Shown: positions 1,369 through 29,270, numbered from the stretch's first letter. The stretch: 57,637 nt of DNA from an uncultured Candidatus Saccharibacteria bacterium (GCA_964469295.1 CAYXYJ010000007.1:14465-72101), one strand, 5' to 3'. Program-made: numbers and translations. Notes: generated by a model not told the origin, from the letters alone.

Positions 1369-1482
1369 GGTCACAAGTTACTAAGCATAATCATTCACTA
1401 CGTTCTGATTCTGCTAAGTACTTCTGACCACGGCTCGCTGGTTCGGCTCCTGCGGAGTCGCCTCATATCGCTGCGCCCGGCT
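1369..1482 (-). repeat. Structured dispersed element, subfamily B (ftsZ 3' trailer)
   Basis: Aligns by eye with 20677-20788; 12-nt loop TTCACTACGTTC at 1394-1405. Confidence 0.8.
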
Positions 1483-1488
1483 ATGCTG

Positions 1489-2763
1489 CTATTTCAGCTT
1501 GCTGCGCCGCAGAAATGCAGGCACAGCCCCCCAATCGTCCTCATCATCTTCATCCACGGGGTCAACTGGTTTTGGATCACGTCTTGGAAGTTCAGGTTTT
1601 GGTTCCGGCATGGTATCCACGCGTGGCGCCACTGGTGCTTCTTCAGGTTCTGCTTTGCGTGGATTTGTCAGTGAATTAAAAATCCGTCCGCGGATAGGTT
1701 CGGCTGGTTGTTCGCGTTCAATAGTCTCTTCACGGACTGGTGTTGAAACGGAAACTGGCGGAGCAATCGGCGCTCGTCTGGCAATCGGAGTATTATGAGA
1801 ACCACTTTCTTCAGGGAAACCAGTAGCAATCACGGTCACTTTTACTTCGTTCTTTTTTAGCTTGTCATCTTTAATTGCGCCAAAGATAACGCGAGCTTGT
1901 GGATCAATTGACTCAGTGATAACGCGAGCCGCATCTTGGATTTCGAGCATCCCTAAATCGTCGCCGCCAGCAATTGCAAAGAGTACACCCTTGGCTCCGG
2001 TGATAGATACTTCGAGTAATGGGGAATTGATTGCACTGCGCGCCGCTTCCTCGGCCCGCTTTTCACCAGTGGAAACACCAACGCCCATAAGTGCTGATCC
2101 AGCGTTTTCCATAACGCTACGAATATCAGCAAAGTCAACGTTAATGATACCAGGCATGGTAATCAAATCAGAGATACCTTCAACTGCTTGTTTGAGGACA
2201 TTGTCACATTGTTCAAAAGCACTTTTCACAGTGGTTTCTTTATCTACAATCGCGAGGAGTCGGTCGTTTGGAATGGTGATGAGCGCGTCTACTTCTTTTT
2301 TAAGTTCTTCAATGCCTTGCATCGCCAAACGCATACGTTCTTGTCCTTCGAACATGAATGGTTTGGTTACTACCCCAACAGTGAGGGCTCCACTTTCGCG
2401 AGCGATTTTTGCAACCACCGGAGCGGCCCCGGTACCGGTACCGCCACCCATACCACAGGTCACAAAAATCATGTCTGAGCCTTTGATAGCGTTAGCAATT
2501 TCTTCACGAGTTTCCTCAGCTGCGCGGCGGCCCATATCAGGATTTCCTCCAGCTCCCAGTCCGCGGGTGAGATTTTTTCCGACATGAATCTTACGCTTGG
2601 CAAGTGAGTGGTGTAAATCTTGCGCGTCACTGTTGATGGCAATAAACTCAACACCTTTTACTTTGGCACCAACCATATAGTTCACGGCGTTATTGCCTGA
2701 ACCGCCAACACCAACGACGCGGATTCGCGCAAATGATTCGACGTCTGTTTTAATTTGTTCCAT
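1489..2763 (-). CDS. ftsZ: Cell division protein FtsZ
   Basis: GGGTGTG tubulin signature; C-terminal VPAFLRR peptide. Confidence 0.99.
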
Positions 2764-2937
2764 GATAGTATGCGACTAGTGAATAAATTCCAAAACTGCA
2801 CCGAAAAGACACTGGTACCCAACGTCATTTCTAGATGCACACATCATACAGGGAATAAAAGTATCTGTCACGATATTGACTAATACCGGTTTCGTGTTTT
2901 TGACGGATTACAATAAATGTTATTTTATTAAAACGTA

Positions 2938-4107
2938 TCAAGGAAGAAATTGAGATAACCATTCAAGGAGTGTTCGTTTTGTTTGCTTTACTACACCAAG
3001 TGCGGTTGTTTCGGTGCCGTCACTCGCCCCCAGCATACATAGTCCGTACGCAACCGCCCAAGACGCGTCACGAACTTTAGTGTTCTTTCCAAATTCAAGT
3101 GTGGCTACACGAGCTGGCAAATTGAGAGTATTTCGAGCCAGGTCTTGGATACCAACCGTCGTTGATCCACCGCCAGTTAAAATGATGCCGGCTGGTAATA
3201 AGCCATCTTTCTTAATTTTTTTCAGATGTAATCCCACCAATTCAAATATGTCACTCAACCGAGCATTGATAATTTCTTCTAATTTCCGTTTTGGAAACGT
3301 TGCCGATGTCATGCCACCGCGCTTCACTTTCTCAGCTTCTTCAAGAGGGATACGTAACCCAAGGGCAATATCATTCGTAATATCATTGGCACCAATTGGG
3401 AAGACTTTTAGAGAGATGGGAGTGAGGTCTTCAAAGACGACGGTTGAGACTGTTTCTGCACCGATGTTCGCCAAGATACAACCGGCACGTCGTTGCGCTT
3501 TTGATAATATGACAAAACTGGCCGCCAGTGGGGAAGCCATCACATCCTCGACATAAATACCCGTATGTTCTACGGCGCCGATGAGATCGTTTAGATGTTG
3601 TTCGTAGGTAGTAATGAACAACGTGTCTACCTCAAGTTTCGTGCCACGCATACCTTGGGGTTTCCCGAGAACGGCTTCGCCGTCAATGCGGTACCGAAGG
3701 GGAATGGCGTGAATGATTTTTCGGTTGGGGATGTGATCAATAATGCGATCCTCACTATCTTGTGCCACTTTTTCGATGTCAATGGTAGTGATTTCGGAAT
3801 CAGCCCGTGAAGTGATTACTTCTCCCGTAGACACAATTTCGTCCAATCCGATACTTCCAATTGATACATACGCCTTTTTTACTTCCACCCCGGCTACCTT
3901 TTCGGCTTGAGCGACGGCACTGCGAATGCTTCGAACAACATCACTCTCGCTCGTGATATAGCCATTACGTAAACCGCGGCTTTCGGCAAAGCCAGTACCA
4001 ATGACTTGGGGTAATCCGCGTTCGTTTTTGCCTTTGGGGACGCGAACAATAGCTACCTTTACTTGGTAGGTGCCCACATCGATACCAGTGATAATATGAT
4101 CAGACAT
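2938..4107 (-). CDS. ftsA: Cell division protein FtsA
   Basis: GIDVGT actin-like motif, NIGAETV, LTGGGS; directly upstream of ftsZ. Confidence 0.95.
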   Translation of the reverse strand: MSDHIITGIDVGTYQVKVAIVRVPKGKNERGLPQVIGTGFAESRGLRNGYITSESDVVRSIRSAVAQAEKVAGVEVKKAYVSIGSIGLDEIVSTGEVITSRADSEITTIDIEKVAQDSEDRIIDHIPNRKIIHAIPLRYRIDGEAVLGKPQGMRGTKLEVDTLFITTYEQHLNDLIGAVEHTGIYVEDVMASPLAASFVILSKAQRRAGCILANIGAETVSTVVFEDLTPISLKVFPIGANDITNDIALGLRIPLEEAEKVKRGGMTSATFPKRKLEEIINARLSDIFELVGLHLKKIKKDGLLPAGIILTGGGSTTVGIQDLARNTLNLPARVATLEFGKNTKVRDASWAVAYGLCMLGASDGTETTALGVVKQTKRTLLEWLSQFLP

Positions 4108-4124
4108 AGAAGAGTATAGACATA

Positions 4125-4505
4125 TTACACGATTCCGTATTTACGGAGATATCGTTGTTCTTGGGCATCCATGGCGTCACTGTGGTCAAAACCTTTTAAA
4201 TGGAGTAGTCCATGGATAAATAAATAAGCGACGTATCCTTTGACGGTGAGGTTAAATTTTTTTGCTTCCCTCACTGCTACTGTCGGACAGATGTATATTT
4301 CTCCCGTATCCGGCGTCAAAGGAAAAGACAGTACATTGGGTGTGTACGTTTTTTGTCGATACTGTTCATTCAATTGTTGTGCTCTGCGGGCGCCAACAAA
4401 TTGTACGGTCAATGTGTAGCGTTTTCCAATGATGTCATTTTTAATCGTCTCGTATGGCCAATGAGGATACGTTTTGACGGTGCTGTGGAGTGAGAACGTA
4501 GACAT
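4125..4505 (-). CDS. ybeY: rRNA maturation RNase YbeY
   Basis: NVLSF and HGLLHLKGFDH metal-binding motif. Confidence 0.95.
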   Translation of the reverse strand: MSTFSLHSTVKTYPHWPYETIKNDIIGKRYTLTVQFVGARRAQQLNEQYRQKTYTPNVLSFPLTPDTGEIYICPTVAVREAKKFNLTVKGYVAYLFIHGLLHLKGFDHSDAMDAQEQRYLRKYGIV

Positions 4506-4589
4506 GATATTTTAGTATGCCATATTTTTGCCCCAAAATTAAGATTTTGCCTGTGAGTCAGTTTGAATTGTGATGATGATAGGAAGGTG

Positions 4590-4648
4590 GCCGTCGCGGC
4601 TAAGAAAATCCCCCTCGCAGCGAGGGGGATTTTCTTAGCCGCGACGGC
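4590..4648. repeat. Perfect 29-bp-arm palindrome overlapping the rpsU stop
   Basis: GCCGTCGCGGCTAAGAAAATCCCCCTCGC-a-reverse complement. Confidence 0.95.
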
Positions 4649-4883
4649 TACGAGTTCGTTCTTGTACCTTACCAAGTTTCAAGAGAGTTTCGTAGGTTTC
4701 TTTCTTGATGAGCTTTTTAAGGCGAGCGGTTTTTTGCACGTTGCGACTTTTGACGCGAGTGCGATATCGACCGCTACGAACTTTGTTCATTATTCCGGCA
4801 CCTTGGACACGCTTTGTAAAGCGACGAATGACATTCGCACTGCTTTCATTGGTGTTTTTAGTGACTGCTACATTTGTTGCCAT
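4635..4883 (-). CDS. rpsU: 30S ribosomal protein bS21 (CPR-type)
   Basis: V.V.KN.NESSANVIRRFTKRVQ.AGI pattern; small basic protein; start MATNV. Confidence 0.75.
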   Translation of the reverse strand: MATNVAVTKNTNESSANVIRRFTKRVQGAGIMNKVRSGRYRTRVKSRNVQKTARLKKLIKKETYETLLKLGKVQERTRSRRG

Positions 4884-4941
4884 ATGTGGGCATGAGCATA
4901 TCATGGTATCTAGGGAACTGCAAGTAACCCTACAACCATAT

Positions 4942-6117
4942 TTATGCAGTAACTAGGATGCTCTTGCGTAGCCGTTTGGCAACGGTAGTGTGTGGGATTG
5001 ATTCTTGTTTACGGGCTTCCATATCGCGCAAAATCACTGTTCCGTCGACAAATTCCTTTTGACCGATGATGATGACGTGTTTGACACCTTTCATTTCAGC
5101 ATCGCGCAGTTGGGCAGACAGTGAATCATTGGCTAAATCTTGCATGACCGTAATGCCGGCTTTACGGAGCTCGTCAATGATTAATATACTGCGCACTTTT
5201 GGTCCAAAGCCAAGTTGAATGATGTAGACTGACGGTGTTTCTACCTTTATTCGAGGGACTCGCAGTGGAGCGGGGCGTTCACTCAGTAAAGCCACAGCAG
5301 CCACTCCGCCGGTTTTGCGCTTGGCTTTACGTTCAAGGAACGTATCAAATCGTCCGCCGCGCAATGTCAACAACCCACCGTTATTGGTCGTATCGCCAAT
5401 GGTTTCGATAGCAAAGAGAGCGTCACTATAACAATCGTGATGTCCAAGCATCTTTGGATCAATTTCGTATGGAGTGGCGCTCATATCGAGAAATTCGATA
5501 ATATCACGAAAATGTTTGCGACTTTGGTCGCTGAGATATTCAAGCGGGTTTGGTGATTTATAGGCGAGCTCATGATCTTCATCAATCAGGGTTTGTAGCG
5601 CCAAGAGAGAGTGAGATTTCAGCGCTTCGCGGGCAGTTTGTGGCATGGCATCAACACGTTTGCGCAAAAAATTAGTCAGTTCGCGACTATAGCGGGTGAC
5701 GGATTCAGTATCACCTAGTGAATTAATGCGTACGACATGATCAGTTTGGCCTAGTTCGTTGGCAATGGCGCGCATGGTTTGAATAAGAACCGCTTCAGCG
5801 ATACTTTTTTGAACATTAAAAATGTGAAGCGACAACGCGGTTTCATTTTCGTTGGCGGTCGTATCTATTGTATAGAGAAAGAGCGGTTTGCCATAGGCAT
5901 GCAAACCAGCTTCACAAAACGTCAACACACCACGAGCTAAATGTCCGTGCACCCCATCAGTAGCATAGTCACCAGCAGTAATCGTGTGTGACAAGGCGAT
6001 AACACAATCTTTACATTCTGGTATATTAGCGAGCGTGTCAATCGTTTGAAAGCCAAAGTGTTCTGCGGTATGAGCAGCGATCTTGATGAATTCAGTTGGA
6101 CTGTGGGTGATACGCAT
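4942..6117 (-). CDS. Degenerate histidyl-tRNA synthetase paralog with anticodon-binding domain
   Basis: HisRS-like INSLGD..S...Y, GGRFD and C-terminal anticodon domain (IIIGQKE..GTVILRDM); motif 2 absent. Confidence 0.8.
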   Translation of the reverse strand: MRITHSPTEFIKIAAHTAEHFGFQTIDTLANIPECKDCVIALSHTITAGDYATDGVHGHLARGVLTFCEAGLHAYGKPLFLYTIDTTANENETALSLHIFNVQKSIAEAVLIQTMRAIANELGQTDHVVRINSLGDTESVTRYSRELTNFLRKRVDAMPQTAREALKSHSLLALQTLIDEDHELAYKSPNPLEYLSDQSRKHFRDIIEFLDMSATPYEIDPKMLGHHDCYSDALFAIETIGDTTNNGGLLTLRGGRFDTFLERKAKRKTGGVAAVALLSERPAPLRVPRIKVETPSVYIIQLGFGPKVRSILIIDELRKAGITVMQDLANDSLSAQLRDAEMKGVKHVIIIGQKEFVDGTVILRDMEARKQESIPHTTVAKRLRKSILVTA

Positions 6118-6127
6118 AGCAATGTAA

Positions 6128-6763
6128 TTATTGAGTTTGGATAATAGCATCTATATCAACAGCGCCGGGAAGAAAATCCAATTCCTTAGGTGGGAACAAA
6201 CGCATATAAGCTCGTCCGACAATGCGTTCTTCTTGTAATACGCCCCAAATACGAGAATCAGAGCTTTGGTCACGATTATCACCCATCACAAAATATTCTC
6301 GATCACCAAGCTCTTCGGTGACATAGGATCCCTTATCCATGCTTTTAATATATGATTCGTCCCAAGTAAATCCGTTTGGATGACTTTCGTTCGTGATAGT
6401 GACGGTTGATCCATCGATAGTGACGGTATCACCGGGTAGTCCAATGATACGTTTAATGAAAAATTTCGACGGGTCTTTGGGATAGCGGAATATGACGACA
6501 TCACCACGTTTTGGTTCGTTAAATGTATAGGTGAGCTGGTCGACAATGAGGTACTCACCACTATGGAAGGTGTTTTCCATAGATGCTCCAGACACAATAA
6601 ATGGCTGAGCAATAAACATCCGAATCGGAATCACAATAATGAGCGCGAGAATGGTGAAGCGAATGATTTCAGTTAACGGATGTTCGGCTGGTGGAGGAAT
6701 GGGGGTTGCGTCATCAGGAGTTTCTATGACGACAGGAGACGATGTACGAGAGAACAATGACAT
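6128..6763 (-). CDS. lepB: Signal peptidase I
   Basis: SGASMENT catalytic Ser, FIKRIIG catalytic Lys, GDNRDQSSDSR. Confidence 0.95.
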   Translation of the reverse strand: MSLFSRTSSPVVIETPDDATPIPPPAEHPLTEIIRFTILALIIVIPIRMFIAQPFIVSGASMENTFHSGEYLIVDQLTYTFNEPKRGDVVIFRYPKDPSKFFIKRIIGLPGDTVTIDGSTVTITNESHPNGFTWDESYIKSMDKGSYVTEELGDREYFVMGDNRDQSSDSRIWGVLQEERIVGRAYMRLFPPKELDFLPGAVDIDAIIQTQ

Positions 6764-6871
6764 ACCGTAGATAATGATGACATCATTATACTTGATATAA
6801 AATGAAAAACAAATTTTCGTTGCTATATCATTACAAAAAATAAATATTTTTTGTAATGATATACTAAGTGC

Positions 6872-7471
6872 ATGTTTTATATTGTTGGTCTTGGTAATCC
6901 AGGTGCGCAGTACGCACAGACGCGACACAATATTGGCTTTGTGGTGCTTGATGCGTGTGTCGCGAGTTGGGGACTATCGTTACCAACTCTTAAAAAAAAG
7001 TATCAAGGCGACGTGAGCGAAGGAGAGTGTGGTGCTGCATCCGTGATGTTGTTGTATCCGCAGACATTTATGAATAACAGTGGGCTAGCGGTGGCATCAT
7101 TGTTGCCAAAAGATAGTCTGTCACGGCTGGTTCTTGTCTACGATGATGTCGATTTGCCAATCGGGACGGTAAAAGTTTCTTTTGGGAATGGCGCCGGCGG
7201 ACACAATGGAGTAGCGTCGGTGATTGAACGGTTGGGAAGTAAGGATTTTATCCGGGTGCGCATTGGCGTCGCAAAAGTAGGTGAGGAGACCGGTAAACCA
7301 ATCCGTCCCACTGGTGATGAGTTGGCGTCATATGTACTTGGTAAATTTTCACCAGCTGAACAAACGGTAGTGGAAGCGTTGTTACCTAAAATAGTTATCG
7401 TATTGGAAGATATTGTGCGTGACGGTTACGAGCGGGCGATGCAACGCTGGAATGGAGTATCGTTGGGATAA
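6872..7471 (+). CDS. pth: Peptidyl-tRNA hydrolase
   Basis: GLGNPG..YAQTRHNIGF, TFMNNSG, GGHNG motifs. Confidence 0.97.
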   Translation: MFYIVGLGNPGAQYAQTRHNIGFVVLDACVASWGLSLPTLKKKYQGDVSEGECGAASVMLLYPQTFMNNSGLAVASLLPKDSLSRLVLVYDDVDLPIGTVKVSFGNGAGGHNGVASVIERLGSKDFIRVRIGVAKVGEETGKPIRPTGDELASYVLGKFSPAEQTVVEALLPKIVIVLEDIVRDGYERAMQRWNGVSLG

Positions 7472-7494
7472 ATCAGCTCTATGGAAGAAACGCA

Positions 7495-7531
7495 AGAAAC
7501 CGCGGCGGGCCTTTGGCCCGCCGCGGTTTCT
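7495..7531. terminator. 17-bp GC-rich hairpin between convergent pth and rpsA
   Basis: AGAAACCGCGGCGGGCC-ttt-GGCCCGCCGCGGTTTCT. Confidence 0.75.
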
Positions 7532-7550
7532 GTTGTATCTCTTTACTCCC

Positions 7551-8636
7551 TTACTTTTGTTCGACGTCCTTAAACGTCAAGGTCATCCGTTGTTCAGTTG
7601 GCTCAAAGAGAGAAATCTTGAACTGGTAGACACTACCAAGCGATAACGTGGCTTTCATTTTTTCTTCTGATTCAAATTCAGAGATATGCACGAGTCCAGC
7701 GACGCCTTCTTGGATTGATGCTAACGCACCATGTTTGTTGTACTTGATGACCACGCCAGGAACGATTTGGTCTTTGGCAAATTTACCAGACGCTTCGGTC
7801 CATGGATTTTCACGAAGTTGTTTGATTGACAAAGAAATTTTATCATCTTTCACTTCGATGACTTTTACTTTTACTTTGTCGCCAACCTTGTAAAGGCTAC
7901 GCGTATTTTCTACGAGACCCCAATCCAGTTCTGAAATATGAACGAGACCTTCGAGTCCTTGTTCAATTTTAACGAATACTCCAAAGTCTACCGCACCGGT
8001 TACTTCACCATCGAGTACATCGCCGACTTCGTACTTACCGATTTTTTCACCCTTTTCTTCTTTTTCTTGGTGACCTTTTTCAGAGAAAATGAGCTTGTGT
8101 TCTTTTTGGTCGGCCGTAATCATCACGACTGACAAGTGGTTGCCAATCAGTGAATTAAGGGCCGTGAGGATTTTATCCTTGTCACCATTATCAACCCGTG
8201 GATAGTTGTCTGGACCAAGTTGAGATGCTGGAAGGAACCCTTGGATGCCTTGCCATTCCATAATCAGCCCACCCTTGTTCGCTTCTTTCACTTCGAGCGA
8301 CATGACCGTACCTTTCTTGACGGCTTCTTCGGCGTCTGCCCAAATAAGCGCTTGGCGAGCTTCTTTGAGAGAGAGTTCGATGTACCCGTCTTTGTTGTTG
8401 ATGTCTACTACCTTGGCAGCGATGGTGTCGCCGACACTGACTTTGCGGAGAATGTCACGCGCATTCATGTATTCACGGCCAAAGATGATACCGGTACCAA
8501 ATGGTGGTAAGTCAACGAAAACTCGTGCACGGCCGATGGCTGACACAGTTCCTTCAACTAACTGTCCTTCCTTTGGTGCTTCGGGAATAGTGGTGACGTA
8601 CTGTTGCATTACGCCGTTAGTTACTTCTTCTGACAT
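7551..8636 (-). CDS. rpsA: 30S ribosomal protein S1 (short form)
   Basis: Repeated S1 domains (GVFVKIE..LEGLVHISEL); start moved to MSEEV. Confidence 0.93.
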   Translation of the reverse strand: MSEEVTNGVMQQYVTTIPEAPKEGQLVEGTVSAIGRARVFVDLPPFGTGIIFGREYMNARDILRKVSVGDTIAAKVVDINNKDGYIELSLKEARQALIWADAEEAVKKGTVMSLEVKEANKGGLIMEWQGIQGFLPASQLGPDNYPRVDNGDKDKILTALNSLIGNHLSVVMITADQKEHKLIFSEKGHQEKEEKGEKIGKYEVGDVLDGEVTGAVDFGVFVKIEQGLEGLVHISELDWGLVENTRSLYKVGDKVKVKVIEVKDDKISLSIKQLRENPWTEASGKFAKDQIVPGVVIKYNKHGALASIQEGVAGLVHISEFESEEKMKATLSLGSVYQFKISLFEPTEQRMTLTFKDVEQK

Positions 8637-8798
8637 ATTACGTATATATATGTGTTTATTCCGACGACACGCGTCTGGGTTACCGTTGCTCATGGCCGTA
8701 GTCCATAAACCCAGGGTTAACGTGTGTCGCTAGAAACTGATAATTACCTTGCGGTACGCGCGACTATACCAGAAATGATTATGGTTGTAAATGATGAA

Positions 8799-8819
8799 CC
8801 GCCGGGCAAAGCCCGGCGG
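8799..8819 (-). terminator. Hairpin downstream of the small ORF
   Basis: CCGCCGGGC-aaa-GCCCGGCGG. Confidence 0.55.
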
Positions 8820-8836
8820 GGAATGGGGAAGTGCTA

Positions 8837-8923
8837 TTACTTCCAAAACAAGGGCAAGAAAGCGAGTGCGGTAAAGATGACCGCCGCCCCGCCCGCCATG
8901 CCGTAGGCCAGTATTTCAATCAT
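8837..8923 (-). CDS. Unannotated 28-aa hydrophobic small protein (MIEILAYGMAGGAAVIFTALAFLPLFWK)
   Basis: AGGAGG 8 nt before the ATG (alternative ATG at 8929); tandem TAA TAG stops; hairpin downstream; single TM-like segment. Confidence 0.6.
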   Translation of the reverse strand: MIEILAYGMAGGAAVIFTALAFLPLFWK

Positions 8924-9636: not shown

Positions 9637-9652
9637 CCGCGTATTTTGCCGT

Positions 9653-20262: not shown

Positions 20263-20347
20263 TGGTGCGTGAGAGAGGACTTGAACCTCCACGGATTACT
20301 CCACTAGTTCCTAAGACTAGCGCGGCTACCAATTACGCCACTCACGC
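20263..20347 (-). tRNA. tRNA-Leu(TAG)
   Basis: Cloverleaf with long variable arm, loop CTTAGGA, encoded CCA. Confidence 0.95.
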
Positions 20348-20522
20348 AGTGTCTGTGAGTGTAGCATAAAATAGCGAGGAGGGAAATGTGCGGCGATTAT
20401 CGTTTGATAGTGGTGGTTTTTTGTATTCTTTCCGGCAGTACTTCATTCGTCAATAATGGTACCAAAATGGATATACTGCTCTTGAATTTTTTGTATAATT
20501 CTTGTACACTCGTCGCACAGAT

Positions 20523-20595
20523 GCCCTCTTAGCTCAGTTGGTAGAGCAGCTCCCTCTTAAGGAGACGGTCCAAGGTTCGAGCCCTTGAGGGGGCA
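20523..20595 (+). tRNA. tRNA-Lys(CTT)
   Basis: Cloverleaf, anticodon loop CTCTTAA, GTTCGAG T-loop; CCA not encoded. Confidence 0.93.
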
Positions 20596-20676
20596 CAGAC
20601 GCAAAACGAAATCACTCACTTTTTAAAGTGAGTGATTTCGTTTTAGCACCTGATTAGTATCAGGTGCGGCGTCTGT

Positions 20677-20788
20677 GCCGGCCGCAGCGATGTTTTCTTT
20701 TTATCTAAAATGAAAACCGCGAGGCGGGGTCGCAGGTACTTAGATTTTTATAAACGAAGTGAAATAAAAAGCTTAGTAACCTGTGACC
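20677..20788 (+). repeat. Structured dispersed element, subfamily B (tRNA-Lys trailer)
   Basis: Homologous to the reverse complement of 1369-1482; loop AAACGAAGTGAA at 20752-20763. Confidence 0.8.
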
Positions 20789-20809
20789 ACTAAATATCGT
20801 AAAGGACTT

Positions 20810-20930
20810 GGTCACTCTCGTGGCTTAATTATTTCACTTTGTTCATAATTGAGCTCACTCGTGCGGCCTCGACCGTTTCGGTCCTAAAGGGGACCCCGAA
20901 ACAGTCTTTCAAGTCCTGCCCCGGGCTACA
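20810..20930 (-). repeat. Structured dispersed element, subfamily A (tRNA-Leu(TAA) trailer)
   Basis: Colinear with 29150-29270; loop at 20833-20844; anti-tRNA segment at 20908-20926. Confidence 0.85.
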
Positions 20931-20976
20931 AAACAATAGCTTCACCATGCATTCGCATAGTGAAGCTTTGTTGTTG

Positions 20977-21060
20977 TGCCCGGGGCGGGACTTGAACCCG
21001 CACGACCTTGCGGTCACAAAATTTTAAGTCTTGCGTGGCTACCGATTACACCACCCGGGC
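20977..21060 (-). tRNA. tRNA-Leu(TAA)
   Basis: Cloverleaf with long variable arm, loop CTTAAAA. Confidence 0.95.
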
Positions 21061-21125
21061 ATTACTGAAACCAGTAATGCGTATGCACACGAGTACAACA
21101 TTTGCTTCCAAATGTTGTACTCGTG

Positions 21126-21197
21126 AGTCCTGGGCGGGAATCGAACCCGCGCATGGAGGATTTGCAGTCCCCAGCGTTACCTCTTCGCCACCAGGAC
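21126..21197 (-). tRNA. tRNA-Cys(GCA)
   Basis: Cloverleaf, loop CTGCAAA, U discriminator. Confidence 0.95.
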
Positions 21198-21667: not shown

Positions 21668-21669
21668 AG

Positions 21670-23166
21670 TCAGGTAATAATCACTTCAAACCCCTCAATG
21701 ATATCGCCGGGCGCTACTTCAAATTTGGCATCAACTTGCAAACCAAATTCTCCTTCACTAACTTGTTTGACGTCAGATTTTTGTTGCTGGAGATTTTTAA
21801 TGGTGCCGCGACCAACTTCAATATCGCGGCGAAGAATGCGGACGCCCGTACCAAATTTTAATAGTCCGGTTTCTACCCGAGCGCCCAGAACATGCGTGTT
21901 TTTTTGGGTACTAAAGTGCTTTAACACTTTGGCTTGACCAGTAACAATTTTTTCTTCCATCTTTGGGGTACGATTTTTAAGAGCGGTGTGTAACCATTCA
22001 GACAATTCATAAATGACCGAAAATGTATCAATTTCCACACCAAGTCTGTCGGCCAAGTCTTTGGCTTCTCGGTCAACTTTTACATTAAACCCAACAATGA
22101 TTGCGTCGCGAGTAGCACTCACTGCTTGCACGTCACTGACACTAATCGGGCCAACGCCGGTGTCAATGACGCGCACGGTAATACGTTCGGAAGCCAACCC
22201 AGCTAATTCGTGTTCAATGGCATCAATTGTACCAAGTGCATCCGCTTTGATGAGAATGGGAATGGTGGGGAGATTGGTTTTTTTGTGTATTGGTGGAGTG
22301 GGTGTCGTCATTTCGGCGATATGAGTCTCGGCTTCCTTTTTGTTAGCGACGGTGTAAAATCGACTCCCAACTTTGGGAATATTCGTCCACCCAACAATTC
22401 CCACTGGTTCGGCCAAACCCGCCGATTTTAAGGTTTTGCCGTTTGCGTCCTCCATAATTCGCACCGGGGCAAAACAGTTGCCCGATACCACAAATTGCCC
22501 AGTAGATAAGGTGCCGTCGGTAATAATGAGGGTCGCGGTATTACCGCGTTTGGGGTCAAGATTGCCTTCAATAATGGTACCGCTCGCCAGCGCACCAGAA
22601 TTTCCCTTCAACTCTAACAAATCGGCAGATAAAATAACTAAATCAAGCAAATCAGCAACTCCGGTGCCCGCTTTGGCAGAAATGGGCGCCCAGGGAATAT
22701 CGCCACCCATGCCTTCGATGTAAATTTCATTTTCGATGAGTGATGTCTGAGTTCTTACCAAATCCGCACCCGGTTTATCAATTTTGTTGATGGCAACAAC
22801 AAACGGAATATTTGCTTCTTTGATGGCTGCTAAGGCTTCTAGCGTTTGTGGTTTAACGCCGTCTTCGGCCGAAACAATGAGAATGGCAATATCAGCAACA
22901 TCAGCACCACGTAAGCGCATTTTCTGAAAGGCGGCGTGACCAGGTGTATCGAGAAAGGTGATTTTTTCTTCAGATCCTTCTTTGGTTTTGTGTGTGACGA
23001 CATACGCCGAAAGATGTTGGGTGATGCCACCGGCTTCTTTATCAACGACGTTTGAATGCCGAATGTAATCAAGCAAGGTTGATTTGCCGTGGTCAATATG
23101 ACCCATGACAACAACAATCGGCGGTCGTTTCTCGATACTTTCGGTAGGTTTTTTTGCTTTTGCCAT
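21670..23166 (-). CDS. infB: Translation initiation factor IF-2 (short form)
   Basis: RPPIVVVMGHIDHGKSTLLD, EAGGITQH, DTPGHAAF, NKID. Confidence 0.98.
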   Translation of the reverse strand: MAKAKKPTESIEKRPPIVVVMGHIDHGKSTLLDYIRHSNVVDKEAGGITQHLSAYVVTHKTKEGSEEKITFLDTPGHAAFQKMRLRGADVADIAILIVSAEDGVKPQTLEALAAIKEANIPFVVAINKIDKPGADLVRTQTSLIENEIYIEGMGGDIPWAPISAKAGTGVADLLDLVILSADLLELKGNSGALASGTIIEGNLDPKRGNTATLIITDGTLSTGQFVVSGNCFAPVRIMEDANGKTLKSAGLAEPVGIVGWTNIPKVGSRFYTVANKKEAETHIAEMTTPTPPIHKKTNLPTIPILIKADALGTIDAIEHELAGLASERITVRVIDTGVGPISVSDVQAVSATRDAIIVGFNVKVDREAKDLADRLGVEIDTFSVIYELSEWLHTALKNRTPKMEEKIVTGQAKVLKHFSTQKNTHVLGARVETGLLKFGTGVRILRRDIEVGRGTIKNLQQQKSDVKQVSEGEFGLQVDAKFEVAPGDIIEGFEVIIT

Positions 23167-23278
23167 ACATCGCTATTATATTAAAACGGAAAAAGCCGAT
23201 AGGCGGCTTACTGATAAAACAAGTGCTTATAGTATAGCAGATATTTACAGAAATGACAGCCCGTGTCATGATTTTTAC

Positions 23279-24508
23279 ATGTGGTCACTTTTTGAAAAAA
23301 AGTCCTCCCCGTACAGAGATTCATCGCTAGCAAAGCGAGTGTATTTAGACTATGCCGCAGCGACACCGCTGTTGCCGGAAGTGTTGTCGGCAATGTTGCC
23401 GTACTTCCATGATACGTTTGGTAACGCCGGCAGTATTCACCAAGAGGGTGTGGTGGCCAAACGATCACTGGAAGAGTGTCGCACGCGGGTGGCGCGGGTG
23501 CTCGGCGTACAAGATACCGGTATTGTATTTACGAGTGGGGGAACTGAAAGTAATAATCTTGCAATTACTGGGTATGTTGAACGGTTGGTGGCTGGCGGGC
23601 GAGCCTATGAGGGTATAGAAATTGTGACGACGCACATCGAGCACTCGGCAACGGGAGAAACAATGGCGAGGCTCGCCCGCCGTGGCGTACGAATTGTGTA
23701 TGTGCCGGTAACGGATGACGGCGTGATAGACGTGGACATCCTCGAGTCACTCTTGACCGACCAGACGGTACTCGTGACGGTGTCGTATGTAAACAGTGAA
23801 GTTGGCGCTATTACTCGCTGTCGGGATATTCGTCGGATCATTGACGGATACACCAAAAAATCACAAACAACAATTGCACTACATATTGATGCCGCTCAAG
23901 CGCCGTTATGGTTACCGTGTGACTTGCCACGTCTTGGTGCCGATCTGTTGTCACTTGATGCGGGAAAGATGAATGGTCCAAAAGGTTGTGGTGTTTTGGC
24001 AATGCGAAAAGGAATGCAGGTGTCGGCAATTGTTGGTGGTGGTGGCCAAGAGCGTGGGATGCGTCCCGGAACGGAACCATTGCCAAGTATTGTCGGATGT
24101 ACCGTGGCGCTTGAATTAGCGCAACACAATTGGCAAGAACGGGCGGCGCGTGTAAGCACTGTTCGTGATTATTTTTTAGCGCGGATTACTGATGAAGTGC
24201 CAAATGTCATCGTCAATGGTCCTCTTGGTAACGATCGGGTAGCCAACAACGTCCACATTTCAATTCCGGGTCTTGATGCCGAATTTGCAGTGATTACGCT
24301 TGATGCGCAGGGTATCGCTGCGAGTACCAAAAGCGCGTGTAGTAGCAAAGGTGGGGGAGCCAGTGCCGTTGTGCTCGCCATGACGGGTGACGAAGCACGG
24401 GCCACCAGTACGTTACGATTCACGCTTGGTCCAGACAATACGACAGCAGATATCGATGTGGCTATTTTGACATTGACACAACACCTCACCAACACTGCCC
24501 AGCTCTAA
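23279..24508 (+). CDS. Cysteine desulfurase (IscS/NifS type)
   Basis: YLDYAAATP, FTSGGTESNN, PLP Lys in DAGKMNGPKG, catalytic SACSS. Confidence 0.93.
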   Translation: MWSLFEKKSSPYRDSSLAKRVYLDYAAATPLLPEVLSAMLPYFHDTFGNAGSIHQEGVVAKRSLEECRTRVARVLGVQDTGIVFTSGGTESNNLAITGYVERLVAGGRAYEGIEIVTTHIEHSATGETMARLARRGVRIVYVPVTDDGVIDVDILESLLTDQTVLVTVSYVNSEVGAITRCRDIRRIIDGYTKKSQTTIALHIDAAQAPLWLPCDLPRLGADLLSLDAGKMNGPKGCGVLAMRKGMQVSAIVGGGGQERGMRPGTEPLPSIVGCTVALELAQHNWQERAARVSTVRDYFLARITDEVPNVIVNGPLGNDRVANNVHISIPGLDAEFAVITLDAQGIAASTKSACSSKGGGASAVVLAMTGDEARATSTLRFTLGPDNTTADIDVAILTLTQHLTNTAQL

Positions 24509-24628
24509 TTTACAAAACGAGTTTTTTATAGCATTATAAGATAACTTCCAGTCCGTTTGTTAGATATTCAGTAATGGTTGATTTGTCGGTTCGTCACTAT
24601 CAGGGAAGCTTCTATAATTTTGTACATC

Positions 24629-27343
24629 ATGCCTAGTTTTCACAATTTTACCTCAAAAGCCAAAGAGGCCATTCGTAAAGCGCATGAACTCGCTATCGAA
24701 CGTGGTCAAAACCACGTGAGCCCGATTCACCTTTTAACCGCTCTCGCGATGCAGGATGAGAGTATGGTTATTTCGGTGCTTGATCGACTCGATATTGATG
24801 TTATTGCGCTGACGGATTTGTTGCTTGAAGCGCTTGAAGGACCCGAAGGGAACGCCACTATTTCGCAATCATACCAACTATATCTCACCGCAGAGTTGGC
24901 CAAAGCGCTCGAATATTCTGGACAACTCGCCGAACAGTTGGGTGATTCATACGTTGGGGTGGAACATTTATTTGTTTCAATCTTGGAAAATCCCGGTCCG
25001 GCCGCCGAGATTATTATGCGTGCGCAAATTGATAAGACTCGCGTCATGAATGCCATCAAAGAAATTCGGGAGAACCGCGTGTCTGATGCTTCGGCCCCTA
25101 AAAAATTCCGTTCACTCGCAAAATACACACGTAACCTCACCAAGTTGGCACAAGAAAATAAGCTTGACCCGGTGATTGGTCGTGATGTGGAAGTGCAACG
25201 CGTCATTCAGATTTTGTCCCGACGCACCAAAAATAACCCCGTGTTAATTGGAGAAGCGGGTGTCGGTAAAACCGCCATCGCCGAAGGCTTGGCGCAACAA
25301 ATTGCGCAAGGCCAAGTGCCAGAATCTGTGAAAGAAAAAGAAATTCTATCACTTGATTTAGGATTGCTGGTAGCGGGTACCAAATTCCGCGGTGAATTTG
25401 AAGAGCGACTTAAGGCCGTCATGAAAGAAGTCGAAAGTTCGGCGGGTCGTATTATTTTATTTATTGATGAGTTGCACACCATTGTTGGTGCGGGACAAGC
25501 GGAAGGATCGATGGACGCGTCAAATATGCTTAAGCCTGCATTGGCTCGCGGTGAATTACGGGTCATTGGCGCCACCACTTTAAAGGAATACCAAAAGCAC
25601 ATTGAACGTGACCCTGCTTTAACGCGGCGATTCCAGCCAGTGTTTGTGAATGAACCCAGTCAAGAAGACGCCATTGCTATTTTGCGTGGCATTGCCGAAA
25701 AGTACGAGTTATTTCACGGTGTGCGTATTACGGATGATGCCATTGTCGGCGCGGTAGAATTGTCGTCACGGTATATCACAGACCGTTTCTTGCCTGACAA
25801 AGCCGTTGATTTGATTGATGAAGCGGCGTCGGCACTCCGGATTTCACTGGAAAATAAACCAGATGAGTTGGTCGTATCAGATCGACAAATTCGACGCTTA
25901 GAAATCGAAAAAGAAGCCTTGAAAAAGGAGTCTGAAGTATCCGAGTTAACCCCAGAGCGCAAAAAACGGATCAAAGATCGACTGAAAGAAATTGATGGCG
26001 AGATTGGTGAGTTACGCGAAACAACTTCGGCGCTGGAAACCAAATGGAACAATGAAAAGGAATCACTTGGCACGATTAGTAGCTTGAAAAAAGAACTCGA
26101 AGAGTTGCGACTCGAGGCTGAGGGAGCCGAAGCTTCGGCTGATTTGACGCGCGCGGCCGAAATCCGGTACGACAGTATTCCTTCGGTTGAAAGTGAATTA
26201 GAACAAGAACAAAAGCGTCTGAAAAAATTGCAACGGAGTCGTCGTTTATTAAAAGAAGAAGTGACCGAAGAAGATATTGCGGCAGTAGTATCGCGGTGGA
26301 CGGGTATTCCCGTGTCACGCATGCTTGAAGCGGAAGCAGAAAAATTAGCCCGTATTGAAGACGAGTTACGTAAGCGAGTGGTTGGTCAAGATCACGCTAT
26401 TCAGTTGGTGGCCAATGCTATTAAACGATCGCGCGCTGGTATTGCCGACCCAAATCGTCCTATCGGTTCGTTCTTATTCCTTGGACCGACCGGTGTTGGC
26501 AAGACTGAATTATCACGGGCCTTAGCCGAATTCATGTTCAATGATCCAGACGCGATGGTGCGGATTGACATGTCTGAGTTTATGGAAAAACACGCCGTCT
26601 CAAAAATTATTGGATCGCCACCAGGATATGTGGGGCATGAAGAGGGAGGAAATATTGCCGAACGAGTACGCCATCGACCGTATTCAGTGATTTTGCTTGA
26701 TGAGGTGGAAAAAGCCCATCCCGAGGTGTTTAATGTACTATTGCAAGTACTTGATTCTGGTCATTTGACCGACGCCAAAGGACGCAAGGTAAACTTCCGT
26801 AACACCGTCATTATTATGACGTCAAATATCGGAGCTGAACACATTGATCGAATGTCTAACTGGGGCTTTGTGCACGATCATGGTGAAAAGGCTCAGTATA
26901 CACAAGCAAAAGATAAGGTCATGGAAAGTCTCAAGGGATTTTTCCGGCCGGAATTTCTCAACCGACTAGATGAAATTATCATCTTTGATATTTTGTCGCC
27001 CGAGACTATCCGCAGTATCGTGTCGCTCCAAATTACTGATGTGACCCGGCGTTTGCAACAAAAAGAAATTGCTTTGACGGTAAGTGATGCTGTGCTCGAT
27101 TATTTGGCCAAAGAAGGCTATGATCCAAAATTTGGTGCTCGCCCATTAAAGCGAGTAATCCAAAACAAGATTTTGACCCCGGTCGCCAACATGATGATTA
27201 GAGAGGGAATGTTGCGTGGCGGGACGGTGCGCATTGACATGAAAAAAGACGAATTGTCATTTGATGTCAAAAAGAAGGCGTTATCACGTCGCAATACTGC
27301 CAAGAAAACAGTTGTGGCGAATCCAACACCGGTAACGCTCTAA
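24629..27343 (+). CDS. clpB: ATP-dependent chaperone ClpB
   Basis: Two AAA modules ([17 protein letters not shown]), long middle coiled coil, [13 protein letters not shown]. Confidence 0.93.
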
Positions 27344-27356
27344 ACTAATAGTGAAC

Positions 27357-27397
27357 CAATAACAACAGGCGGCGCGAAGTGCCGCCTGTTGTTATTG
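27357..27397. terminator. 19-bp hairpin with C(GAA)G loop between convergent genes
   Basis: CAATAACAACAGGCGGCGC-GAA-GTGCCGCCTGTTGTTATTG. Confidence 0.75.
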
Positions 27398-28936
27398 TCC
27401 ATGCAATCGAAATTGTTTCGCTATGAGGGGTTCAACCGGTTGCTTGTCGTCAGTAAAAATCACATCATCAACCAAGGCGCTCTCCGGAATAGTGATGTAT
27501 CGACTATTCGCTGAAAAACTGTAGCCCGCGATTGAATGGGTAATTGTGACGTCGGGGAAAATAATTTCCTGTCCTTCGTGTCGAGCAACGAACAAAATAT
27601 TTTGCATACCACTGTCGTGCGGATTGCTCACCGGAATGATGGCAAGATTAGGGAATACCGTCTTAATGGTCTTTATGAGTGAGCCGGTCATGCTCGTACC
27701 GTAGGTATCGAGACTGCCGATGTAGTTAAAGATAGCCACTCCCTCAGGTGATAAGCGATCTTTCACCGCCGCAAAAAATTCGCTGGTGGACAAGTGGGCG
27801 GGAATAAAATGTCCACTATTCATCACATCGGAAAAGATAACATCATATTGTGTGGTAGTACTTTGGAGAAATACTCGCGCATCCACGGTATAGTGGTGAA
27901 GATTTTCACTAACCGGTAACTCGAAATAATCGTACGCAATTGGCAATAATTGTGGTTCCATTTCGACGGTATCAATGGGAATATTGGGATAGAGCGCGTG
28001 GACGTATCGAGGGACGGTAAAGGCTCCGCCACCGAGAGCAAGATAATTACGGGGGGTTGGCACCATTTTTTCGGTCAAGACAGCATATTGGGCGTACGGA
28101 AAGACAATTTGATTACTGCCGGGAATAATGGCTGATGAATGGTTGGTATCATTTTTTAAAAAACGGTACGTGGTACCGTTAATGGTTCTTTCGAACACTT
28201 CGATGTGGCTATAGAGTCCGTCCGTGCTATAGAGTAAGGCTTTTCCTGTGCTTGATGAATGGTATGACACTACAAATATCGTGCTGACAAGAGCAATAAC
28301 CACACTAGTACCAGCGACAATCAATCGTTGTGTCGTTTGTTTTCCAGTGCGCCACCACAGCATGCTAGTCCAAACGGTAAGAAACAATGCGGTATAGGCC
28401 ATTCCAGCAATCAATCCAATATACGGAATAAGAAAAAAGCCAGTGCTCAAGCTGCCGGTAATACTGCCAATTGTGCTCCAAAAAAATACCGTCCCGACCA
28501 TCGCTCCAGCCGTGTCAGAAGTCTCGCGCATGGTCAATAACTTAATCACAAACGGTGAATCAATGCCCAGGAGAAGTGCTGGCAAAAAGTAAAACGCTAC
28601 CGCTAAGACCAGTGGACCAAATTGCAAACCGAGAGCCGGAGCAACCATTGGCAAAAGCATTACTGCCATCATGATGACTAACAGTAGCAATAATCCAGCA
28701 CTGGCCAACACTGCCATCAACGTTGTTGGTTTGGGGGAGTAATCGGCTAATCTGCCACCCCAGTAATAGCCGAGACTAAGGGCGAGTAAGACCACGGTAA
28801 TGACACTCGAAATGACCGGCAGTGAACTGCCGTAGTATGGTGCTAATAATCGCACGCCAGCAATTTCGATCACGAGTACCGCCGCCCCGGTGATAAACAC
28901 TGTCGCCAGTAAGAGATACTTTTGGTTGGGAAACAT
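27392..28936 (-). CDS. Fused membrane domain / spermidine-synthase-like protein
   Basis: Multi-TM N-terminus; LALGGGAFT, DTVEME, DARVFL, YDVIFSD, IFTDDKQPVE. Confidence 0.9.
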   Translation of the reverse strand: MFPNQKYLLLATVFITGAAVLVIEIAGVRLLAPYYGSSLPVISSVITVVLLALSLGYYWGGRLADYSPKPTTLMAVLASAGLLLLLVIMMAVMLLPMVAPALGLQFGPLVLAVAFYFLPALLLGIDSPFVIKLLTMRETSDTAGAMVGTVFFWSTIGSITGSLSTGFFLIPYIGLIAGMAYTALFLTVWTSMLWWRTGKQTTQRLIVAGTSVVIALVSTIFVVSYHSSSTGKALLYSTDGLYSHIEVFERTINGTTYRFLKNDTNHSSAIIPGSNQIVFPYAQYAVLTEKMVPTPRNYLALGGGAFTVPRYVHALYPNIPIDTVEMEPQLLPIAYDYFELPVSENLHHYTVDARVFLQSTTTQYDVIFSDVMNSGHFIPAHLSTSEFFAAVKDRLSPEGVAIFNYIGSLDTYGTSMTGSLIKTIKTVFPNLAIIPVSNPHDSGMQNILFVARHEGQEIIFPDVTITHSIAGYSFSANSRYITIPESALVDDVIFTDDKQPVEPLIAKQFRLHGQ

Positions 28937-29149
28937 GGTACCTAGTATAGCAGAATATAGTGGAGATAACGGGCGGCCCTACGGGCCGCTCGTATCAATA
29001 TAAGAAAACCGTCTGACCAATAAAAGTTGGCTCGTTCGTACTTCACTGTTCGAATCCCTCTAGTCAGTGACATTTAGTCACGTACTCCCGGCGCACGCAA
29101 TAAAAATCGCCTAGGCAAATGTCTGAGTAATTTTTTATATTTGAGATTC

Positions 29150-29270
29150 GGTCACTCTCGCGGTTAAATTAGTTCACTTCGTTCCTAATTTAACTCGCTC
29201 GTGCGACCTCACCAGTCTCGGCCCTAAAGGGGACCCCGAGACTGGTTTTCGAATCCCTCCGGCGCTACAA
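29150..29270 (-). repeat. Structured dispersed element, subfamily A (original tRNA-Tyr trailer)
   Basis: Colinear with 20810-20930; loop at 29173-29184; anti-tRNA-Tyr segment at 29248-29265. Confidence 0.85.

Follow-up and report, generated by a model that had tools for sequence, protein, structure and literature searches.

Integrative elements that carry a replacement for the 3' end of their target gene are represented by the P4-type islands and phages at tRNA genes and by e14 and phage 21 at icd. The four structured repeats described here lie in a window of 57,637 nucleotides (the whole stretch of DNA analysed) from an uncultured Candidatus Saccharibacteria bacterium, and they resemble these systems in that they sit within a conserved gene's 3' end, that end is present as a direct repeat, and an element-borne copy of it keeps the gene intact. 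As with e14 and phage 21 at icd, the two copies of the protein-coding target, here ftsZ, differ synonymously. However, the present elements measure 100–250 nt instead of kilobases and encode no integrase, they hold an extra inverted copy of the target together with a conserved, covarying and strand-specific fold, and a single family occupies more than 30 different targets. The four repeats appear to be members of a very abundant family of structured, enzyme-less mobile elements of Patescibacteria, 100–250 nt long and apparently undescribed. Such a family probably consists of miniature (about 100–250 nt), non-autonomous, site-specific integrative elements that insert inside the 3' ends of conserved genes and use a folded single strand as their recombination module.

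A sequence-only reading of the window had reported four copies of a two-hairpin fold with a 12-nt loop, and all four are present where it placed them. The loop occurs as an exact RAACRWAGTGAA motif, with 0 mismatches, at 1394-1405(-), 20752-20763(+), 20833-20844(-) and 29173-29184(-), and GTGACC lies 17–19 nt downstream of each motif. Folding agrees with the description of a hairpin 1 followed by a long irregular hairpin 2 capped by the 12 nt (Z-scores -1.9 to -4.7). The compensatory stems quoted in that reading are correct; in a 27-member subfamily alignment, changes on both sides are seen in 9/10 upper-stem pairs, while the basal GGUCGC/GUGACC stem is invariant with a conserved G.U. Covariation is strong, with both-side changes in 27/29 pairs, and paired cells reach 93.8% as compared to 65.8% in shuffles and 32–44% with slid partners. 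Hairpin 2 reads GGGGTCG ... YGTGAC at its foot in 45–50 sequences, the G.U is found in 45/47 sequences, and the bulged A is also conserved. The 12-nt loop, GARCNNAGYGAR, is a compact module made up of a tandem G.A, a triloop and two pairs that covary, and recurs on the tips of several hairpins; it most likely makes contact with a protein. A covariance model of the long hairpin was built from eight sequences including all four window copies, so that their recovery at 66–79 bits in a search of the window is by construction; no other copy was found there, and the next match, at 20 bits, is the opposite strand of a copy. The strand on which the fold operates had been argued from mismatches in the arms of one copy, designated A1, that were said to become G-U pairs only on the tRNA strand. 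That argument is wrong, since hairpin 2 of A1 has one G.U and two C.A on the tRNA strand and two G.U and one C.A on the opposite strand, and the + strand of A1 folds slightly better (-41.2 vs -38.4 kcal/mol). The conclusion itself, that the functional strand is the gene-sense strand, holds across the family, as the sense strand folds better in 57/57 elements by a mean of -9.2 kcal/mol.

Read on the strand of the gene, the inserted unit has a constant order of parts. The gene runs to the junction and is continued by an element-borne copy of its 3' end, followed by a trailer, which often contains a hairpin, and by an antisense copy of the 3' end that extends 2 nt beyond the junction. A closing stem with hairpin 1 and then hairpin 2, terminating in YGTGAC, complete the element, after which comes the displaced original 3' end with C as its first base. 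For tRNA genes the junction falls between T55 and C56 of the T-loop and the repeat begins at C56; for ftsZ it falls in the Ala codon preceding a conserved 11-residue C-terminal peptide. The antisense tRNA ends, the GTGAC beside a sense copy starting from C56, and the double ends of ftsZ show that the elements are insertions into gene 3' ends. The sequence-only description of them as 3' trailers did not capture this anatomy.

Three of the window copies are associated with tRNA genes. Element B2 (20597..20788, +; z -4.58; 69.7 bits) follows tRNA-Lys(CTT) at 20523..20596(+). Its trailer forms two hairpins (20603-20644 and 20647-20668) and is followed by gcgtctgtgcc at 20669-20679, an antisense segment complementary to 20592-20602, and by hairpins 1 and 2 at 20680-20727 and 20728-20788, all on the + strand; on its right side, the tRNA-end repeat is no longer present in the window sequence. 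Element A1 (20804..20975, -; 73.9 bits) follows tRNA-Leu(TAA) at 20976..21060(-), whose C56-A73 (20977-20994) corresponds to the element-side copy of the tRNA end. On the same strand, the trailer of A1 forms a terminator-like hairpin (20938-20967); tRNA positions 73 to 54 are copied in antisense (20908-20929), hairpins 1 and 2 occupy 20871-20906 and 20810-20868, and CAAGTCC (20804-20810) is a short copy of the T-loop in sense orientation. Element A2 (29145..29311, -; z -4.66; 79 bits) is similarly organized on the - strand, with a hairpin in the trailer (29278-29305), the tRNA-Tyr 3' end copied in antisense (29248-29267), hairpins 1 and 2 at 29211-29246 and 29150-29208, and CGAATC (29145-29150) as the remnant of a sense T-loop. 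Its ortholog in a relative lies at L003 216-274. In both A copies the first ~20 nt are an inverted copy of the 3' end of the upstream tRNA, and the terminator-like hairpins of their trailers are separate from the conserved core. The statement that the copy at 29150 originally stood after tRNA-Tyr is right: A2 was behind tRNA-Tyr(GTA) (38810..38893, -) until the arrival of a 9.5-kb island (29322-38807), which is flanked by ctgtgcgccg at 29312-29321 and 38808-38817. This island in tRNA-Tyr carries a serine recombinase, and it crosses over at the acceptor end instead of C56.

The partial loop motifs that had been noticed at about 29042 and 43386 are also real, and each belongs to a further element. 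The first lies in a degenerate second element in tandem behind A2 (29010..29095, -), which has an antisense tRNA-Tyr end at 29049-29060 plus 29085-29095(-), split by a 24-nt hairpin, and behind it a decayed core that contains the motif; a small hairpin interrupts the antisense segment in L058, L038 and L082 as well. The second lies in the tRNA-Leu(CAA) locus (43245..43482, -; tRNA at 43400-43482), where a 131-nt element of a different, second type (43269-43399, -) has GAACAAAGTGAG as its trailer motif, along with an antisense T-arm and two hairpins, the one at the right end capped by a TGTAA loop; behind it, 22 nt of the tRNA end, starting at G53, are directly repeated without mismatch (43247-43268, -).

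The remaining window copy is associated with ftsZ. Element B1 (1369..1488, -; 65.7 bits) consists of a residual antisense CAGC (1485-1488), hairpin 1 with the closing stem (about 1430-1484) and hairpin 2 with the terminus GTGAC|C (1369-1429), all on the - strand, and is located ahead of the ftsZ terminator, with one copy of the C-terminal coding sequence on either side. The functional ftsZ 3' end (1489..1527, -; 12 residues, Ser = AGC) is presumably the element-borne replacement copy. The displaced original end (C TGT CCC TGC ... TAA; 1332..1369, -) forms a direct repeat with 1489-1526 and still encodes the same 11-residue C-terminal peptide. Since the displaced end encodes the same peptide with synonymous changes, the element supplies a replacement 3' end. 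The codon version of the functional end, ..CGGCGCAGCAAGCTGAAATAG followed by CAGC, is one base off that of L225 and close to those of L229, L223 and L236; most relatives have TCN-Ser versions. The displaced end of the window is identical over 30 nt to the functional end of the relative L242. Behind ftsZ, a homologous element occupies the same position as B1 in about 38/80 relatives, and a second ftsZ end follows. When right ends were found by position alone, 13/26 encoded an identical peptide with only synonymous differences, and half of the ftsZ right ends kept just the first 6–16 nt of the repeat. The A-type copies of the window likewise all retain merely the first 6–16 nt of the right-hand repeat. 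Right-hand repeats are thereby bimodal, and the short ones keep exactly the stretch that pairs with the antisense segment, unlike the prediction of simple decay of a displaced copy. The closing helix could be under selection where it stands, for a function in the host or as RNA, or there could be a second type of junction. Additionally, elements behind ftsZ are syntenic across 76–92% FtsZ identity, which could reflect vertical inheritance under selection instead of repeated insertion.

The family is widespread outside the window. The pattern GAGGCGGGGTCG..GTGACCGA is found at at least 120 loci, nearly all in Patescibacteria; 87 of these matches have a same-strand tRNA upstream, representing 31 anticodons. 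In an unselected sample of relatives, an antisense T-arm lies within 400 nt downstream of 86/284 tRNA genes (about 30%). A direct repeat of the tRNA's own 3' end is present 95–330 nt downstream of 43/309 tRNAs (<=1 mismatch in 17; 30 exact), in a scan whose typical best match had 7 mismatches, and a second tally gave a direct repeat of the tRNA end within 400 nt for 100/473 tRNAs. As in integrative elements of the tyrosine-integrase type at tRNA genes, the flanking repeat of the tRNA 3' end is accompanied by an intact tRNA. Among type I elements, 43 have GTGAC followed by a repeat that is 15 nt or longer and begins exactly at C56, and in 4/4 genome matches to the A-type pattern the core stands between an antisense and a sense copy of the tRNA end. 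Occupation is patchy: syntenic tRNAs of the window and L001 have different elements or none, and all four infB-linked tRNAs are empty in nine relatives. Furthermore, tandem and cargo-bearing versions of the elements exist.

Searches for an enzyme and for described relatives of the elements were negative within their scope. Rfam 15 at gathering thresholds gave no match on the elements over the whole window, and at E up to 10 only sub-threshold, microRNA-type chance matches appeared in 20500-21100 and 28950-29350. The claim that no transposase is adjacent holds for the window and for 150 neighbouring ORFs of relatives: no recombinase family is among the 25 commonest Pfam families of the 150 ORFs within 2.5 kb, and a Y1 transposase was found neither in the window nor in these neighbourhoods. 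The inserts of 95–330 nt contain no ORF, hence no integrase gene lies within the element. Neither an excised form nor a same-strain empty allele nor a mobilising enzyme came to light, and an empty-site probe gave 0 matches.

The suggestion of a non-autonomous, structured mobile element acted on in trans fits the target-end repeats, the replacement ends, the patchy sites, the tandem arrays and the lack of a neighbouring recombinase. Under such a mechanism, the form that moves or is recognised would be the gene-sense strand, single and folded, as ssDNA or as RNA. Its antisense segment would pair with the target sequence, in the element's own copy or in an empty site, and would thereby bring the junction to the base of hairpin 2, where the invariant GGUCG/YGUGAC stem lies with its G.U wobble and bulged A. 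Strand exchange would be carried out by a recombinase encoded elsewhere in the genome. A more tentative possibility, to which we give limited credence, is that scaffold and antisense segment form a programmable, nucleic-acid-guided recombination module. The same guide of 10–20 nt would then pair alternately with the element's own target copy and with the empty target, both junctions would be aligned at the foot of hairpin 2, with either a host recombinase or the RNA/DNA fold performing the exchange.

Among the other explanations, the likeliest is a vertically inherited, cis-acting host RNA in the 3' trailer or 3' UTR, acting in stability or processing, or as a pairing switch whose antisense segment binds either the downstream mimic or the end of the upstream tRNA or mRNA; the repeats would then have arisen as by-products. 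The covarying, sense-strand-specific structure is in keeping with such an RNA, as are the 31/45 cores that have no terminator between them and the gene, the position of B1 ahead of the ftsZ terminator, its conservation in many relatives, and truncated right ends that retain exactly the pairing segment. We nevertheless regard it as unlikely, because it gives no role in the RNA fold to a full second coding copy of the ftsZ peptide with synonymous differences only, and because orthologous tRNAs are patchily occupied, syntenic sites bear different element types, arrays and cargo genes occur, A1 and A2 stand behind terminator-like hairpins, and one core is shared by unrelated genes. Quite unlikely is a REP- or PATE-like origin, with ssDNA mobilised by a HUH Y1 transposase (IS200/IS605 TnpA or RAYT) encoded once elsewhere and the antisense segment as an extended cleavage-site guide. 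The strand-specific hairpins, the conserved bulged base and wobble at the foot of the terminal hairpin, the junction fixed at GTGAC|C, the 2-nt extension of the antisense segment into the flank and an enzyme not encoded nearby would all suit it, and REP-like palindromes sharing GGAACGAAGTGAAGCG..CGAGAGTGACCGGAT are found behind ORFs in another organism. However, neither the window nor the surroundings of 150 elements showed a Y1 transposase, IS200/IS605 and REP elements lack copies of a target-gene end whereas long target repeats are present here, and the left-end hairpin differs for each target. Inert scars, that is attL/attR remnants after the loss of tRNA-integrated phages, plasmids or islands, are highly improbable: integration classically leaves tRNA 3' ends directly repeated, and an island does occupy tRNA-Tyr in the window, but a 29-pair structure with compensatory changes would not persist over more than 50 genomes, neither the fixed junction nor an antisense copy of each target is expected, viral contigs, phage records and plasmids give no match to the elements, and the island's crossover is not at C56. 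Nor do the elements amount to an intrinsic terminator, which would be only a G+C-rich hairpin with a T run: the conserved core is separate, and a terminator-like hairpin is present in just 14/45 elements.

Among known systems besides the P4 and e14 types, integron cassettes with their attC sites are also enzyme-less units recombined in trans, in which structure is conserved over sequence. Both form arrays and both occasionally carry cargo, and the single-strand-specific imperfect hairpin of attC, with extrahelical bases by the crossover, may have a counterpart in the sense-strand-specific fold with its conserved bulged A and G.U, if that fold forms in DNA. In contrast to attC, RYYYAAC/GTTRRRY boxes are absent here; the arrays stand behind tRNA genes and ftsZ with no intI-attI platform or neighbouring integrase; and the sites are dispersed tRNA T-loops and ftsZ codons, with the element holding both a copy and an anti-copy of the target. 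REP/BIME-RAYT and the palindrome-associated elements of IS200/IS605 are likewise small, non-autonomous, strand-specific hairpin repeats located extragenically behind genes, and IS200/IS605 offers a precedent for a cleavage site recognised by pairing with a short internal guide, comparable to the antisense segment. Those elements lack target duplication and gene-end replacement, their guides measure 4 nt as against 10–20 nt here, and their Y1 transposase has no counterpart in the window or the element neighbourhoods. CTX-phi-type users of XerCD, with a folded single-stranded attP, are similar in that the sense copy can pair with the antisense copy to mimic, as a duplex, the double-stranded target and in relying on a host enzyme in trans, which by analogy may also apply here; the target is not dif, and size and architecture are unrelated. 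The bridge RNAs or seekRNAs of IS110/IS1111 adjoin a DEDD/serine recombinase gene and have two internal loops and only a 2-nt core repeat, none of which is seen here: the units of 100–250 nt have no adjacent ORF of any kind. They are alike in having a scaffold with a target-complementary segment beside a donor-matching one and probably in being re-targeted by a change of guide. A guided module, if true, would explain the re-targeting of one family to more than 30 tRNA species and ftsZ, and would constitute a guided system distinct from both IS110 bridge RNAs and IS200/IS605 guides.

The four copies proposed by the sequence-only reading are real: RAACRWAGTGAA is found four times as an exact match in the window, with GTGACC 17–19 nt after each. 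Every copy also has the fold described there, a first hairpin followed by a long irregular second hairpin capped by a 12-nt loop. R1, a covariance model of the long hairpin for which the four window copies and four from other genomes were used, finds just these four in the window at 66–79 bits; a copy read on its reverse strand comes next, at 20 bits. No named RNA family could be assigned either, since Rfam at gathering and permissive thresholds yielded no known family for the elements, even at E up to 10. The host itself is placed in Patescibacteria, class Paceibacteria, by its IF-2 and FtsZ relatives. The antisense and sense copies of the target gene end were overlooked by that first reading. 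On the tRNA strand, the A-type copy behind tRNA-Leu(TAA), A1, starts with GTAGCCCGGGGCAGGACTTGAA, the antisense of the adjoining upstream tRNA (positions 73 to 54), and ends with GTGAC-CAAGTCC, a sense copy of its T-loop. The second A-type copy, A2, is built likewise with tRNA-Tyr (GCGCCGGAGGGATTCGAA ... GTGAC-CGAATC). Additionally, tRNA-Leu(CAA) in the window is followed by a 131-nt insert and then by 22 nt that repeat the tRNA's 3' end exactly.

The same anatomy is widespread in relatives. A strict A-type pattern matches four loci in species-representative genomes, and all four show tRNA, hairpin, antisense of the tRNA 3' end, hairpin 1, hairpin 2, GTGAC and sense T-loop in this order. In a sample of 80 infB loci from relatives (1.18 Mb), a direct repeat of the gene's own 3' end lies 95–330 nt downstream in 43 of 309 tRNA genes with at most 1 mismatch in 17 (exact in 30), the typical best match for such a repeat having 7 mismatches. 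In this unselected sample 284 tRNAs were assessable, and 86 of them have an antisense T-arm within 400 nt downstream. Based on their right ends, the inserts are of two kinds. Type I, which includes the A and B copies of the window, ends in GGGGTCG[variable hairpin]YGTGAC/C56, where the slash marks the junction and C56 is a T-loop base, while type II, which includes the tRNA-Leu(CAA) insert, ends in a terminal hairpin whose loop is TGTAA. The type I pattern matches at least 120 further loci, some of them G+C-rich chance matches, nearly all in Patescibacteria and three in Elusimicrobia MAGs. A same-strand tRNA lies upstream in 87 of the pattern loci, covering 31 anticodons, and in 43 type I loci the repeat begins exactly at C56 and extends to the tRNA end, including CCA where encoded. 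As the Elusimicrobia-labelled contigs (L101, L106 and L148; three MAGs, 30–140 kb) carry type I elements with tRNA repeats, the family may reach beyond Patescibacteria, or these bins may be contaminated.

Several further features were seen at these tRNA loci. In eight type I elements (L091, L116, L137, L153, L169, L177, L182 and L187), the downstream T-loop copy is broken after CGA by a mini-hairpin of 12–15 nt (e.g. AAGTGTACTCACA) similar to the type II right end. A small hairpin with a AACTGCTT loop separates the antisense acceptor segment from the antisense T-arm segment at many loci, with examples in the trailers of L095, L105, L158, L197 and L199. The Cys, Leu-TAA, Lys and Leu-TAG tRNA genes follow rbfA in most relatives (window 20263–21197; L005–L084), in many of them rearranged in order and orientation. 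No significant link was found in the infB cluster between element presence and tRNA gene inversions (14/33 vs 4/14, p = 0.52).

The copy behind ftsZ discriminates between the models. R1 matches 70–150 nt after the ftsZ stop codon, on the same strand, in about 38 of 80 ftsZ loci from relatives of 76–92% identity, and directly after GTGAC/C a second copy of the last 12 ftsZ codons follows. Among 26 loci whose right ends were found by position alone, these ends are bimodal: 13 encode an identical C-terminal peptide with synonymous differences only, and 13 stop after about 14–16 nt, forming a discrete class in which just the part that pairs with the antisense segment is retained. Functional and second ends show 11 differences in L225, and all 34 aligned bases are equal in L289. 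An antisense copy of the ftsZ end is present after the stop codon, for instance in L220 and L246, of which only CAGC is left in the window and L225. The functional end of the window uses AGC for Ser (..AAGCTGAAATAG, then CAGC), a version that recurs in L225, L229, L223 and L236 one to few bases apart, while 30 nt of the displaced copy (1332–1369) are identical to the functional end of L242. Since the two ends match different relatives, the element appears to supply its own ftsZ end, with the native end shifted downstream. As the codon versions of the two ftsZ ends differ, staggered cutting is excluded as the source of a target-site duplication.

The fold is supported by covariation. The type I core model R2, which takes in the helix that the antisense segment forms with the downstream T-loop, finds 51 elements in 1.24 Mb of unselected sequence. 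In its alignment 93.8% of cells are paired, compared with 65.8% in shuffled alignments and 32–44% with slid partners; the alignment is fitted to the model and thus biased toward structure, but the margin is nonetheless large. Changes on both sides occur in 27 of 29 pairs. Of 47 sequences, 45 have G.U as the fourth pair of hairpin 2, and the 3' strand has a bulged A that the seed sequences conserve. The subfamily of the sequence-only reading shows the same behaviour, with compensatory changes at 9 of 10 upper-stem pairs above an invariant basal stem. The 12-nt loop consists of a tandem G.A, two covarying pairs (GAACGAAGTGAA vs GAGCGAAGCGAG) and a triloop, and other members have the same module at the tip of hairpin 1 and in their trailers. 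The gene-sense strand folds better than its complement in all 57 unique cores (mean difference −9.2 kcal/mol), with 117 G.U pairs vs 26; as the sense strand is favoured throughout, the fold is predicted to belong to a single sense-polarity strand, either RNA or ssDNA. Terminator-like hairpins precede the A1 and A2 cores and are present in just 14 of 45 type I elements, and the B-type copy B1 lies upstream of the ftsZ terminator. By inspection, hammerhead, HDV and K-turn readings of the junctions did not fit.

Signs of mobility are found across relatives. Orthologous tRNAs are occupied patchily, all four infB-linked tRNAs being empty in nine relatives. The parB–tRNA-Leu(CAA)–miaA–tRNA-Trp region of the window contains a type II element, with nothing inserted at tRNA-Trp, whereas the syntenic region of L001 has one A-type and one B-type element instead. 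Tandem arrays exist behind tRNAs and behind ftsZ, and hairpin 1 and hairpin 2 types are reshuffled among members, as in L003 (7738–7868) or in L213, which combines a B1-like hairpin 1, an A-type hairpin 2 and a full repeat. A search for larger autonomous versions via long-range tRNA-end repeats gave recombinase-free cargo cassettes and serine-recombinase island remnants. At L004 (2994–4390), 1.2 kb of cargo at a tRNA end, with two ORFs lacking a Pfam match and no recombinase, is flanked by two copies of the right half of hairpin 2 (TTAATCTAGCCACGAGAGTGACCGA). L073 (4207–5020) has an Asp/Glu-racemase-like ORF, again with no recombinase, between repeats of the tRNA-Trp end. The T-loop of tRNA-Gly(GCC) in L084 (7686–8100) is interrupted by an insert of 333 nt with a flanking 19-nt tRNA-end repeat; the insert encodes an 87-aa GIY-YIG nuclease ORF (Pfam E 3e-14) and might be a nuclease-bearing relative of the mini-elements. 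Another candidate larger version, L155, was a false positive from two similar tRNA-Gly genes, and YraN-like genes near elements are merely syntenic with tRNA-Gly. Strain-level polymorphism was also sought; the RbfA of the window lies on a single 986-nt contig, and an empty-site probe for tRNA-Leu(CAA) had no match.

Among 150 ORFs located up to 2.5 kb from elements, the 25 most frequent Pfam families include no recombinase or transposase, and in Pfam scans of about 30 window ORFs the island's serine recombinase was the sole recombinase. Its crossover is at the acceptor end of tRNA-Tyr, not at C56. As for a phage or plasmid origin, two patterns had 0 matches in viral contigs, and no blastn match was obtained in phage or plasmid records. 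A primer-binding site for tRNA-primed reverse transcription is rejected from the sequence because the antisense segment lacks TGG for CCA. The anatomy, the replaced gene ends, the fixed GTGAC/C junction and the sense-strand fold are all demonstrated. In the mechanism proposed here, the antisense segment, extending 2 nt over the junction on the target side, would pair with the target sequence, and this would bring the junction to the base of hairpin 2 for strand exchange by an enzyme acting in trans.

The island (29322–38807) is 9.5 kb long with low G+C (0.36–0.40), lies in the acceptor end of tRNA-Tyr, separates A2 from that gene and is flanked by a 10-nt repeat, ctgtgcgccg. It encodes an OLD-type ATPase-TOPRIM protein (29793–31961) and a UvrD helicase (31964–33892), a pair that looks Gabija-like, small ORFs of no known function, and a large serine recombinase (37143–38981) whose ORF spans the tRNA. 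Between two ORFs of no known function is a LOOT RNA on the minus strand (35265–35391; 48.3 bits, gathering threshold 46.4), the sole non-tRNA Rfam match in the window. L003 has an island at the same tRNA-Tyr position. Beside tRNA-Tyr and tRNA-Trp are two adjoining ORFs (39009–41506) whose N-termini resemble type IV secretion pilins; this part is joined to a lysozyme-like domain in one ORF and to a VanY peptidase domain in the other. In metagenome Ga0082212, from a G+C-richer organism, long REP-like palindromes stand right after ORF stops (L205, L211, L214, L216 and L218); they contain GGAACGAAGTGAAGCG..AACGAGAGTGACCGGAT, as hairpin 2 does in the A copies, and AGCCGGG..GCGCAGCG, as hairpin 1 does in B1, a likeness that may be chance or distant relationship.

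If this reading holds, the small genomes of Patescibacteria have been colonised at large scale by enzyme-less elements of 100–250 nt. About a third of sampled tRNA genes, and ftsZ in about half of the relatives, would carry an element, and the 3' ends of essential genes would have been rewritten yet left unbroken. Duplicated ftsZ ends, isolated 3' fragments of tRNAs and unusual tRNA 'trailers' in these genomes would then have an explanation. Gene flow between uncultured lineages would be marked by tRNA 3' halves and ftsZ-end codon versions of foreign origin. The question raised is which trans-acting enzyme recognises a folded strand whose guide-like antisense segment pairs with the target. Should target choice depend on this pairing, the elements would be a natural case of re-programmable site-specific insertion.

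Full-text literature searches found no description of these elements, which are filed here as site-specific integrative elements. They have the logic of a replacement 3' end in common with tRNA- and icd-integrating phages. As enzyme-less, structured and arrayed units they are similar to integron cassettes, their hairpins behind genes are similar to REP elements, and the guide-like segment brings IS200/IS605 and IS110 to mind. Membership of each of these systems fails on a defining feature, and the targeting principle has a real chance of being new.
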